Shown in pieces: positions 57,207-58,846 of a stretch of 64,000 bases of DNA. This DNA comes from Chiloscyllium plagiosum (taxonomy: Eukaryota). Position 1 is the stretch's first letter, and each line of letters opens with the position of its first letter. The stretch spans positions 1,601,306-1,665,305 of the forward strand of contig NC_057755.1 in the NCBI RefSeq assembly GCF_004010195.1, in the 5' to 3' direction. A model generated the notes under the pieces. It was given only the letters and a program-made list of their open reading frames with translations. It was not told the origin of the DNA and searched no databases. The position numbers and the translations under genes are program-made.

Positions 57207-58846
57207 ATGGCTTCAAATAGGGTATTCCTTCGATACTCAAACCAAAATATGCGTGACCCCTGTTGGGCAAGCTTCATTTCATTCTTTGCTGCTGCCTTTT
57301 TTAGTTCATTATGTGCATTTTGTTCACACTTGGGCAGGGAGAGAATGGCGTATACTCTATAACAATGGATACTCCGCGGCCCTCAACCCCGATGGCAGCG
57401 TCCAAAATCGTGGATAATTCTACAAACAAAACAACAAATCAGTATATATTAGCAGATCTTCCTTTTCCCGGACAAATGCCACCCCTACAGCTGATAAGGT
57501 CGCCTGACACCTCTATCATTGCAAGGTCATCAGACGAGTGTCTTGAAAAGGGGGGAGATGATGTTGCCCAGCTGTGTGGACTCGTCATTGCTAGCACCGG
57601 TGTTCAAGAAGGGACTGTTTTCCCGTGTGATCCTGAGCAATCAGGACTGTGTATCATTTATGCGGAATACATGTCCTTGCGTGCCGAGAGACCAATCCTT
57701 CGATGTGTAGAATTCTACCAAGAATGACTTTCCCAATGGTCAACTGCATCAAAAAGATTGGACAGTTCATTTATAGAACAAGTCTCAATGGACTTTACTT
57801 TGTCAAAGTGCTGTCTGCCAGTTTGATCTCAGTTGTGCTAAAGGGCGACCCTGGTAGGCCTTACTTATTCAAATAGCAAGCGCTACAAGACAGAAAAGGG
57901 GAGATGTTATCTTTCACGACCAATTTGTTTCTCCAAAGTCATAATAAAATATTTGGCAGGGATGAAGTGGTTTGTTAAGGACTTGACTTCAGCAAACGAC
58001 TCTTTGATTCTTTTCACCTTCCCGAATCCCAGCGAAGGAGTATGGAACTCCAAGCACTCAGGACAGCCGTACCTTTTAGCTATGGACTGCCCATATGTTC
58101 AGGGATGTCACAAAGACAGGCCTGCTTCTTATTAGGAAGCTTCCTCCATTATCTACGGTAAAACTGTTTGCATTTTGTTCAGCCAATGCAAAGCAACCAA
58201 CTCCCTTGTCCTTAAAGAAACAGGTACTCCCCGTGCTGTAGCTGGAGGAACTCTTATTTTTATGACTACTGTTCTCTGTCCAATTACCTGGGAATGGGAT
58301 TGGAGTTTCGCTGCCAAACGTTCAGTCTCACCTGATTTTTGCATCCGTTGGAGGAATGCTAAGGCTTTGGGCACCACTAAGACTCACTCTCTCGGGTACC
58401 CATTTCTTCGTCCATTTTTCTTAGGATGGTCTTTAGGAATGTTTAGCCATCACAACTAAAATGATCCCATTTGCGGTCTCACCGTCTTTGGAAATGAGAC
58501 AGCTGCTGCTCTGGAAGGAATTAAGGACTTGTTTTCAGAAGTGTGCTTATCTTCCTCACAAAACCAGAACACACGCGACTACGTATTCGCAAAAGAAGGT
58601 GGAGTTCGCACCATAGTCAAAGGCAAATCCTTCATGACAGTCACTGACCTCATCGAGAATATTACCAGGCCTGTAGATAACATCTGCACCTTCGTCAGCC
58701 AAATGACTGAAGGTGCAGCATGGGGAGATTGTGGTTTCAGCTCATGGTACAACTGGTTGATAAGTCTGGCTATGTGTGCTGTTATCTTTTCAGTTGATCT
58801 TTTTGATGGCATTACTATTGATAAATGTATTATTGCGAGCTACTAA
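57207..58846 (+). pseudogene. env: ERV env remnant with filovirus GP2-like/alpharetrovirus-like TM subunit
   Basis: Hydrophobic signal-like stretch ~57265-57340, Cys-containing SU fragments, cleavage-like AAKR|SVS at 58310-58330. TM 58322-58846 is in one frame with one stop: C...ICGLTVFGNETAAAL...QNQNTRDYVFAKEGGV (decayed immunosuppressive domain), decayed CX6CC, NIT sequon, then a hydrophobic membrane anchor. The start is approximate. Confidence 0.85.

Follow-up and report, generated by a model that had tools for sequence, protein, structure and literature searches.

A decayed endogenous retroviral env in Chiloscyllium plagiosum with a fusion subunit homologous to filovirus GP2

Does the coding remnant at positions 58310–58846 of a 64,000-nucleotide stretch of the Chiloscyllium plagiosum genome (the window) derive from a retroviral env, and is the fusion subunit (TM) that it encodes related to Ebola virus GP2? 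The initial annotation of this DNA had proposed both. We conclude, with a probability of about 0.9, that this part of the window is the TM subunit of an old, dead endogenous retrovirus (ERV) env, homologous to filovirus GP2.

Translation gave the frame 58310–58846 as originally described: AAKR/SVSPDFC at its start, a TAA stop at 58457–58459, and then NDPICGLTVFGNET. The Cys codons at 58340–58342 and 58472–58474 are separated by 44 residues, as had been claimed. In relatives of the window env the cleavage site reads VKR/SVS, and genome copies and database relatives alike keep the hydrophobic core of the loop and its two cysteines, with a spacing of 40–44 residues. The window aligns with the related copy L032 over positions 58051–59021, through the tail of a 296-aa ORF in that copy, and past the stop at 58844–58846 the homology of the window tail runs on in another frame. 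On their own, the TM and SU ORFs of the window had no meaningful Pfam match; a Pfam signal for env appears only when relatives or profiles are used.

The reported 22 identities in 72 positions with Ebola virus, including ICGL, NET and NIT, were recovered when the frame was aligned by HMMER to PDB chain 9bsu_A; the sequence printed for this chain equals the Ebola virus string given in the initial annotation across the aligned part. When the single 128-aa ORF of the window was searched against PDB, 34 of the 36 sequences at E ≤ 10 were filovirus-type glycoprotein chains, so that the resemblance exceeds chance (best matches 9x3j, E 2.2e-4, and 9bsu_A, E 2.9e-3). The other two, both at E > 1, were a permease and a haem exporter; none of the 36 was a retroviral TM.

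The remnant lies in a heavily degraded LTR provirus that extends from about 45.56 to 59.60 kb of the window (Table 1). Its LTRs are direct repeats 13.4 kb apart and are identical at 466 of 551 positions in a pairwise alignment (84.6%, K2P 0.173). An AATAAA-like signal occurs within the LTR sequence, and homology to the LTR of L032 begins at 45559. The primer-binding-site (PBS)-like sequence next to the 5' LTR may resemble the 3' end of tRNA-His. A target-site duplication around the provirus was looked for by eye and none was recognisable. The assignment to a retroviral env is borne out by these LTRs, the PBS-like site and the gag remnant in the window, together with gag, pol and env in a related copy.

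Table 1. Features of the provirus in the window (positions counted from the first letter of the window).
Feature	Position	Strand	Basis or remark
5' LTR	45559..46190	+	well-aligned core 45624-46183; outer ends approximate
Leader common to fuller copy L034	46180..46392	+	blastn, 77.6% over 214 nt to L034 416-627
Primer-binding-site-like 18-mer TGGTGCCGTGACTCAGTA	46191..46208	+	starts with TGG; directly 3' of 5' LTR
Nested foreign repeat block, including a minus-strand LINE	46400..52780	.	almost no counterpart in other copies
RVT_1 of LINE	47815-48111	-	
Exo_endo_phos_2 of LINE	48863-49285	-	
gag remnant, 5' part	52780..53779	+	70.7% DNA identity to L034 800-1779
Non-coding repeat material common to L032, L033 and L035	53800..57050	.	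blastn
env SU remnant	57250..58309	+	frameshifts, stop 58133-58135, ~0.4 kb deletion at 58048-58051; start approximate
Furin-type SU/TM cleavage site AAKR/SVS (predicted)	58310..58321	+	translation
Internal fusion loop between two Cys codons (predicted)	58322..58474	+	TAA interruption 58457-58459
TM core	58475..58735	+	HR1, ISD-like stretch, decayed C-x6-C loop, HR2/Trp-rich membrane-proximal region
NET sequon in HR1	58493-58501	+	
Decayed C-x6-C loop codons	R 58607-9, S 58628-30, then F 58631-3	+	
NIT sequon	58658-58666	+	
Membrane anchor and decayed cytoplasmic tail	58736..59005	+	premature stop 58844-58846
3' LTR	59024..59604	+	well-aligned core 59030-59587; outer ends approximate

The gag remnant had no Pfam match, and a gag-region ORF of L034 matched window positions 53416–53712 in tblastn (46% identity, E 8e-12). 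CA, NC and pol are missing: none of the CA, NC, RT, RNase H and IN ORFs of L034 had a tblastn match anywhere in the window, and the 49 ORFs scanned in the provirus interior contained no Pfam family, so that no gag or pol domain survives. One segment of the repeat material that follows gag is present twice, inverted, in L033. The ORFs of the SU remnant are spread over three different frames. Window positions 57508–58048 and 58051–59021 match L032 2606–2095 and 1696–739, and because these matching segments skip a part of L032, about 400 nt of its Cys-rich SU are absent from the window. The window copy is non-functional, as pol is gone, repeats have been inserted, SU is deleted and frameshifted, TM contains a stop and both cysteines of the C-x6-C motif are lost. 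At an assumed rate, the LTR divergence would make the provirus tens of millions of years old. The locus itself is one decayed copy without functional consequence.

The family to which it belongs is abundant in the genome. There were at least 1005 first-look candidates, and 2921 candidates when a full Env was used as query; all 150 of the matches scored, out of the 1005 first-look candidates, reached E ≤ 5.8e-18. The fuller copy L034 has, in order, gag, RT_RNaseH_2, RNase_H, Integrase_H2C2 (21 bits, under the Pfam cutoff of 25.5) and env. The nearest solved relatives of its pol are the RT-RNase H structures of MLV/XMRV (E 8e-16 and 1e-11); Ty3 and foamy virus matched at E 1e-7 and 5e-5, and there was no lenti-, alpha- or betaretroviral match at E ≤ 0.01. 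The lineage appears to be a class I ERV (gamma/epsilon-like pol), the pol class being read on L034, which is about 45–52% identical to the window in TM and 68–72% in env DNA, as the window provirus has no pol. A stop-free 115-aa TM-fragment ORF that is repeated in L039–L044 was considered as a conserved gene and is unsupported as such. The entire loci of 2.1–3.4 kb are 91–94% identical, and they are therefore segmental duplicates.

A profile built from 30 genome copies matched filovirus GP2 best in PDB (61.5 bits, E 6.9e-16). Scores were 31.6 bits for CAS virus GP2, 24.8 for syncytin-2 (E 1e-4), 21.2 for MoMLV and 15.0 for ASLV TM (E 0.11). Among the same 30 copies, PF22307 (GP2 core, HR1-HR2) was found in 22 and TLV_coat in 18. 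The PF22307 scores of family members barely exceed the cutoff (28–31 bits versus 27), and TLV_coat is equally strong. When the family profile was searched against 1.84 billion proteins, 13 matches had E ≤ 1e-30. Five of the 11 that were looked up carry a name, and these are from Heterodontus, Mobula, Pristiophorus and Hemiscyllium; the named relatives of the ERV lineage are all in sharks and rays. In a separate homologue search, the intact Env P0001 retrieved only three proteins, one of which is a gene model that joins an env fragment to an LDL-receptor-domain protein.

Outside the family, the best named match of the profile was Tapajos virus (TAPV) GP (85.4 bits, E 3.8e-19); P0014, at 94.1 bits, falls inside the shark family in the TM tree. 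Thirty-two proteins rank between TAPV GP and Mengla GP (57.6 bits), and the four of these that were looked up are CX6CC-type ERV Envs of shark, catshark, catfish and sea snake, at 65–73 bits. Mengla and Marburg GPs score 55–58 bits. Because these CX6CC Envs outrank Mengla GP, score ranking alone fails to single out the filoviruses. The description of this Env as unusually close to filoviral GP is right for TM, with the correction that, by score, it has nearer relatives than mammalian filovirus GP2.

The same description is not supported for SU, which had no match to GP1. When the whole Env was compared with Marburg/Mengla GP by hhalign, the TM/GP2 region was the only one to align (probability 99%, E 4e-18), and no SU/GP1 alignment was obtained with this GP profile of five rows. 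Filo_glycop (PF01611), which scores 250–669 bits in Mengla and Marburg GP, matched none of the 11 family representatives included in a scan of 123 proteins. An AlphaFold2 model of P0001 from a 30-row alignment was of low confidence (mean pLDDT 50.3, pTM 0.27), and a Foldseek search with this low-confidence model found nothing in PDB at E ≤ 0.001.

The cysteines gave a mixed picture. In the initial annotation, the window codons CGC, TCC and TTC were taken as the three positions of a CX6CC motif, each one base from TGC. The arithmetic is correct, and only the first two positions are Cys in relatives. In all 13 database representatives in which the motif is present, and in the genome copies retaining both cysteines, the family reads C-x6-C followed by I, M, T or V, and the CX6CC motif has to be given up. 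The reading of the window TTC as a former Cys codon was rejected, as relatives have I, M, T or V at that position.

The loop cysteines are conserved, as proposed. The pair is present in 19 of 25 aligned rows of the loop-type clade (31 rows aligned). The first Cys is lost or absent in own_L012 and P0012, the turtle Env P0047 has neither, and the rows of the window, P0011 and P0030 begin too late in the alignment to show both. All six ordinary gamma-type Envs aligned are without the pair. The two cysteines are 45 residues apart in Mengla and Marburg GP, compared with 40–44 in family members. From the second loop Cys to the C-x-n-C motif there are 45 residues in the window, TAPV, Mengla, Marburg and Mab3, and also in four of five family Envs measured, with 47 in P0005. 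Upstream of the disulfide loop, the ISD-like segment can be aligned with its counterparts in CX6CC Envs. In SU, CXXC does not occur in P0001, and CG[KQ]C occurs in two of seven family Envs.

In a TM tree of 106 sequences and 178 columns, which contained no ASLV, reptarenavirus, tarsier or Varanus sequences, the family grouped with filovirus GP2 and apart from ordinary gamma-type Envs (98/95), in agreement with the affinity first proposed. The 31 rows of this clade comprise 18 of the family, four filoviruses, TAPV, Mabuya Mab3, Anolis Envs and the turtle Env; the 75 other rows, mostly TLV_coat Envs, are left out. The window grouped with copies from its own genome at 100/91. Mammalian filovirus GP2 was sister to the branch with the shark family at a weak 69/69. 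TAPV GP grouped with the shark family at 98/86, and an AU test did not reject the arrangement of TAPV with lizard ERVs (p 0.208). We think it rather doubtful that the elasmobranch family, P0030 and TAPV GP, which share the absence of the third Cys, are a real sub-lineage (98/86). If they were, the snake filovirus GP would derive from such a retrovirus and not from lizard ERVs, and this sub-lineage would do without the SU-TM disulfide found both in canonical gamma-type Envs and in Ebola/Marburg GP.

Could this be an ordinary gamma/epsilon env, whose likeness to GP2 is the general similarity of the ISD/CX6CC region known since the 1990s? TLV_coat in 18 of 30 copies would fit, as would the four looked-up CX6CC ERV Envs that outscore the Mengla and Marburg GPs (65–73 versus 55–58 bits). 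However, the 98/95 clade unites the family with filoviruses, TAPV and lizard ERVs and excludes 75 rows, the Cys-bracketed loop is common within that clade and missing from the six ordinary Envs aligned, and in PDB the profile drops from 61 bits for filovirus GP2 to at most 25 bits for retroviral TMs. This explanation is largely refuted, and we leave it only a slim chance. We give still less weight to a non-retroviral origin, in which a GP gene entered the genome as a copy of a filovirus mRNA. Such an element would explain why the best PDB matches are all filovirus GP and why the best named viral match is TAPV GP, but the stretch is flanked by LTRs and accompanied by a PBS-like site and a gag remnant; in L034, env is preceded by gag, RT/RNase H and IN; the copies number in the hundreds to thousands; and Filo_glycop (GP1) was not found in the 11 family representatives scanned. 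It is the LTR-gag-pol-env context that refutes an endogenous filovirus.

A syncytin-like host gene co-opted from env is equally improbable at the window locus. It is true that Heterodontus relatives are annotated 'syncytin-1-like' and that an intact Env of 646 aa (P0001) is in a public collection; yet these annotation names are automatic, and in this copy at least two in-frame stops interrupt the TM frame, SU is frameshifted and carries a deletion, cysteines are lost and the tail is cut short. Co-option is refuted for this locus only. There is a small chance that, in some sharks or rays, natural Envs of the family that are intact are still expressed or have been co-opted.

Taking the window stretch as the TM of a dead ERV env related to GP2, we propose a model for the intact gene product. 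It would be a class I fusion glycoprotein from which furin-type cleavage frees TM. A hydrophobic internal loop would be held by a disulfide between the Cys seven residues past the cleavage site and the ICGL Cys. After the loop there would follow a heptad-repeat helix with an N-glycan, an ISD-like segment, the C-x6-C disulfide loop, a second sequon, a membrane-proximal region rich in Trp, and finally the anchor and the tail. Filovirus GP2 has a colinear layout, which is explained by the homology of the two. As the family has no third Cys, the association of SU with TM is probably non-covalent or made through another Cys pair.

These findings bear on the source of the filovirus entry glycoprotein, since the retroviral fossils of sharks and rays count among the nearest relatives of GP2 that are known. 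A 2024 paper in Nature Microbiology on retroelements of cartilaginous fish is reportedly by Nino Barreat and Katzourakis. The ectodomains of those retroelements were placed as the sister group of GP2 from ebola-, marburg-, cueva- and dianloviruses with a posterior of 0.83, which is moderate support, and TAPV was placed with lizard ERVs (Nat Microbiol 2024, PMC11521997). Its supplementary table has 14 chondrichthyan loci, with Tapajos, Ebola, Marburg and Mengla viruses, and also Lloviu and CAS viruses, as best viral matches; the window locus is not among these rows. The inference of a filovirus-GP2-like retroviral env in sharks and rays was thus already in print. The published elements are like ours in kind of host, LTR-retroelement context, best viral matches, the domain call (Ebola/HIV-1-like HR1-HR2) and a clade that includes filovirus GP2, TAPV and lizard ERVs and is separate from the ectodomains of other retroviruses. 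The window family fits that group by viral matches, HR1-HR2, context and clade, a comparison of properties and not of co-aligned sequences.

The fossils support the view that an RNA virus captured the ectodomain of a retroviral env, a point printed in 2024; as to which way the transfer between retroviruses and filoviruses went, we follow the literature. The words 'cysteine' and 'CX6CC' do not occur in the main text of PMC11521997, and in the portion of the paper available to us we found no mention of the missing third Cys, the loop pair and its spacing, copy number or pol class. The details added here are the family-wide lack of the third Cys, a conserved Cys-bracketed loop with nearly filoviral spacing, a register of 45 residues that shark ERVs share with viruses as distant as Marburg virus, the high number of copies, a pol like that of MLV, and the lack of detectable similarity between SU and GP1.

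The family can be set beside four known systems. Canonical gamma-type TMs (MLV, syncytins), as described in PMC9967133, are likewise class I and have an ISD-like region, an intrasubunit disulfide loop and TLV_coat. They differ in the third Cys of CX6CC and in the CXXC of SU, neither of which is conserved in the family, and their fusion segment is N-terminal, whereas that of the shark family is internal and bracketed by cysteines. CX6CC is retained in ASLV, with its alpharetroviral, 'avian gamma-type' Env (PMC9967133, Hogan and Johnson 2023), and against the family profile the ASLV TM chain scores no more than 15 bits (E 0.11). Like the family, TAPV GP has the loop Cys pair and lacks a third Cys; its own disulfide-loop motif is C-x7-C, its identity to the family is at most 39% over 153 columns, and it belongs to an exogenous RNA virus. 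Filovirus GP2 has a third Cys (CC) that links it to GP1 and longer loops around the WIPYFGP segment, and it is accompanied by a GP1 part (Filo_glycop) that is not detectable in the shark family. Filovirus GP sits in the negative-strand RNA genome of a mononegavirus, whereas the shark element is an LTR retroelement integrated in DNA. Both have, in colinear order, a Cys-bracketed internal fusion loop, a sequon-bearing HR1, an ISD-like segment, the disulfide loop, another sequon and a Trp-rich membrane-proximal region, and their identity is 31% over 112 aligned profile columns.

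Translation of 58310-58846 gives AAKR/SVSPDFC..., interrupted by a TAA at 58457-58459, and downstream of this stop begins the 128-codon open frame (NDPICGLTVFGNET...) quoted in the initial annotation. The loop cysteine codons lie at 58340 and 58472, 44 residues apart, and the codons equivalent to CX6CC are CGC, TCC and TTC. Thus, translation bore out the frame, cysteine positions and codons that had been described. When the 128-aa frame was compared with all PDB sequences (phmmer, E≤10), 34 of the 36 matches were filovirus-type glycoprotein chains, GP2 of Ebola, Bundibugyo, Sudan, Marburg and Ravn being named among them, with top E-values of 2.2e-4 and 2.9e-3. 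The other two were unrelated membrane proteins (E>1), and no retroviral TM was among the 36. The 22 identities claimed over 72 positions of Ebola GP were counted again in the printed alignment with chain 9bsu_A, ICGL and both sequons (NET and NIT) included. These results confirm that the likeness of the TM to filovirus GP2 is not chance.

A profile of 30 TM copies from the same genome, run against PDB, matched filovirus GP2 (E 6.9e-16, 61.5 bits), CAS reptarenavirus GP2 (9e-7, 31.6 bits), Syncytin-2 (1e-4, 24.8 bits), MoMLV TM (1.5e-3, 21.2 bits) and ASLV TM (0.11, 15.0 bits). Against 1.84 billion representative proteins it gave 410 matches at E≤1e-3; of these, 13 reach E≤1e-30, with P0001, an intact 646-aa Env, among them. 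Eleven of these 13 were looked up; the five that were named are all elasmobranch (two from Heterodontus, one each from Mobula, Pristiophorus and Hemiscyllium). Outside this family of elasmobranch ERV Envs, the named protein with the highest score was GP of the snake filovirus Tapajos virus (85.4 bits); fragment P0014, at 94.1 bits, lies inside the family in our tree. Thirty-two proteins separate Tapajos virus GP from Mengla GP (57.6 bits, rank 48; Marburg GP, 55.0), and the four of them looked up are ERV Envs of shark, catshark, catfish and sea snake (65-73 bits). Score rank by itself does not single out mammalian filoviruses. Among 123 Pfam-scanned matches, Filo_glycop was found in two, both filovirus GPs, and TLV_coat in most others. 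A separate homology search, with P0001 as query, brought up P0196, a gene model from a catshark that bears the name of an LDL-receptor class A domain protein; a stretch of it is 62% identical to 17% of the family Env, and its annotation probably runs into an ERV env fragment.

The provirus that carries this env is dead. Its two direct repeats are 84.6% identical (K2P 0.173) and behave as LTRs; directly after the 5' copy is an 18-mer starting with TGG, which may resemble a tRNA-His primer site. Comparison with other copies told the element's own parts apart (leader, 5' gag remnant, env and LTRs), and the 6.4 kb between leader and gag remnant holds foreign repeats, a minus-strand LINE among them. 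Pfam matched none of 49 ORFs of the provirus interior, and the CA, NC, RT, RNase H and IN of L034, a fuller gag-pol-env copy in the same genome, have no counterpart anywhere in the 64-kb window. The env ORFs are spread over three frames, the SU is ~0.4 kb shorter than in the related locus L032 through a deletion, and the tail is truncated and frameshifted. Under an assumed rate of 1-2.5e-9 substitutions per site per year, the LTR divergence would place integration ~35-90 million years ago. Several other elements were observed in and around the provirus. Among them, 54303-55402 may be a separate repeat because its homologue is duplicated and inverted upstream of the env of another related locus, L033 (4512-5616 and 8041-9146).

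Features in and around the provirus, in window coordinates
Feature	Position	Strand	Remark
LINE-like ORFs	43860-44563		additional to the inserted LINE
Interspersed repeat, ~320-460 nt	44445-44909; 46620-47001		flanks 5' LTR on both sides; also in ERV copies L032 (2666-3130) and L034 (6771-7091); 80-87% identity between places
5' LTR	45624-46183		direct repeat, 13.4 kb from 3' copy
Leader	46180-46392		belongs to element (copy comparison)
LINE inserted in provirus	47301-50543	minus	
RVT_1 of inserted LINE	47815-48111	minus	
Exo_endo_phos_2 of inserted LINE	48863-49285	minus	
ORF	51122-51409	plus	translation reads like GIY-YIG nuclease module of Penelope-like element; no Pfam match at E≤0.001
Long CA/TC-type low-complexity tracts	51345-51800; 61800-63600		source of spurious long ORFs with many His/Thr or Cys/Leu/Ser residues
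5' gag remnant	52780-53779		belongs to element (copy comparison)
env	about 57250-59005		belongs to element (copy comparison)
env stops	58133-58135; 58457-58459		
3' LTR	59030-59587		direct repeat
Membrane-protein-like ORFs	60520-61483	plus	e.g. ...SFDRFVTICCRKLK..., reminiscent of GPCR DRY-type motif; no Pfam match at E≤0.001

The 3.56-Gb assembly contains 150 scored matches of the window TM, all at E≤5.8e-18 (1005 first-look candidates; 2921 with a full Env query). L034 has the order gag, RT-connection, RNase H, integrase, env. Of the solved structures, those of MLV/XMRV are nearest to its RT and RNase H (E 8e-16 and 1e-11, versus 1e-7 for Ty3 and 5e-5 for foamy virus), and we therefore regard it as a class I ERV. 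The copies keep the cleavage site VKR/SVS, a cysteine seven residues downstream and then a hydrophobic stretch, with the second loop cysteine in ...NRNYLICGL.... Where the window has R...S-F, they have C-x6-C followed by I or M, and C-x6-C plus I/M/T/V is found in divergent copies and in 13/13 database representatives carrying the motif. Thus, the proposed CX6CC ancestor holds for its first two cysteines and is wrong at the third. An ORF of 115 codons without a stop, spanning the C-terminal half of TM, recurs at least seven times: at L039-L044 (about 3.90, 4.24, 4.28 and 4.32 Mb on the window's own contig, four copies within 0.5 Mb; contigs C74654 and C100765) and once on C22266. A conserved gene was considered but is not supported; L039-L044 are 91-94% identical over their entire 2.1-3.4 kb, and because identity spans whole loci, segmental duplication of a single truncated copy seems the likelier origin.

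TM phylogeny placed the family with filovirus GP2. The tree held 106 TM sequences and 178 columns (IQ-TREE, LG+C20 PMSF, ultrafast bootstrap/SH-aLRT; bootstrap not fully settled, correlation 0.989). Near-duplicates P0153 and P0168 and matches not spanning profile positions 110-195 had been removed, the ebolavirus GP2 chain P0064 was added by hand despite this rule, and ASLV, reptarenavirus, tarsier and Varanus sequences lay outside the set. A 31-row clade (98/95), apart from the 75 other rows, unites the family (18 rows), four filovirus rows, Tapajos virus, P0030, turtle Env P0047, Mabuya Mab3 (P0141) with P0115, and four Anolis-type Envs. Tapajos virus, P0030 and the family group at 98/86, and filoviruses are sister to these plus the turtle Env at only 69/69; the published pairing of Tapajos virus with lizard ERVs was not rejected (AU test, p 0.208).

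Loop anatomy was aligned for 25 clade rows and six ordinary gamma-type Envs (31 natural sequences). The fusion-loop cysteine pair is present in 19/25 clade rows and 0/6 ordinary Envs; the first cysteine is lost or lacking in family rows own_L012 and P0012, the rows for the window, P0011 and P0030 start past the point where both would be visible, and neither is present in the turtle Env. Spacing within the pair is 40-44 in the family, 45 in Mengla/Marburg and 38 in Tapajos virus/Mab3, and from the second loop cysteine to C-x-n-C it is 45 in all three groups (47 in family member P0005). The third cysteine is carried by filoviruses, Mab3, P0115, the turtle Env and ordinary Envs, and is missing in the family, P0030, Tapajos virus (C-x7-C) and the Anolis group.

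The initial annotation had called the Env unusually close to filoviral GP. This closeness is shown for TM alone, because profile-profile comparison of family Envs with five Marburg/Mengla GPs aligned a single region, TM/GP2 (112 columns, probability 99%, E 4e-18, 31% identity), leaving SU/GP1 unaligned, and AlphaFold2 modelled P0001 with low confidence (pLDDT 50.3). Foldseek with this poor model gave no match at E≤0.001. Hotzel (bioRxiv 10.1101/2021.11.05.467493) argues for a common SU/GP1 beta-sandwich across orthoretroviruses and filoviruses; our data neither support nor contradict it for the family.

In sum, the homology is real and was correctly interpreted, in a dead provirus, with two corrections: C-x6-C instead of CX6CC, and closeness confined to TM. 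The inference that a cartilaginous-fish retroviral lineage bears on the origin of filovirus GP is sound, yet it is already in print. 'Deep mining reveals the diversity of endogenous viral elements in vertebrate genomes' (Nat Microbiol 2024; PMC11521997), in its accessible portion, recovers the ectodomains of ebola-, cueva-, marburg- and dianloviruses as sister to those of cartilaginous-fish retroelements (posterior 0.83) and puts forward three captures of retroviral ectodomains by filoviruses and reptarenaviruses. Its table gives 14 chondrichthyan loci, the window locus not among them, with Tapajos, Ebola, Marburg, Mengla, Lloviu and CAS virus as best viral hits; 'cysteine' and 'CX6CC' do not occur in its main text. 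For anamniote ERVs, CXnC variants and 'alpha-type' fusion peptides flanked by cysteines were described by Chen et al. (bioRxiv 10.1101/2021.11.23.469661), whose main text contains neither 'shark' nor 'Chondrichthyes'. Compared with the gamma-type Env signature as described by Hogan and Johnson (PMC9967133), ISD plus CX6CC with the third cysteine forming the SU-TM bond, the family departs in one feature, the third cysteine. A sub-lineage without this cysteine, common to the family and Tapajos virus, is a small residue of possible novelty.
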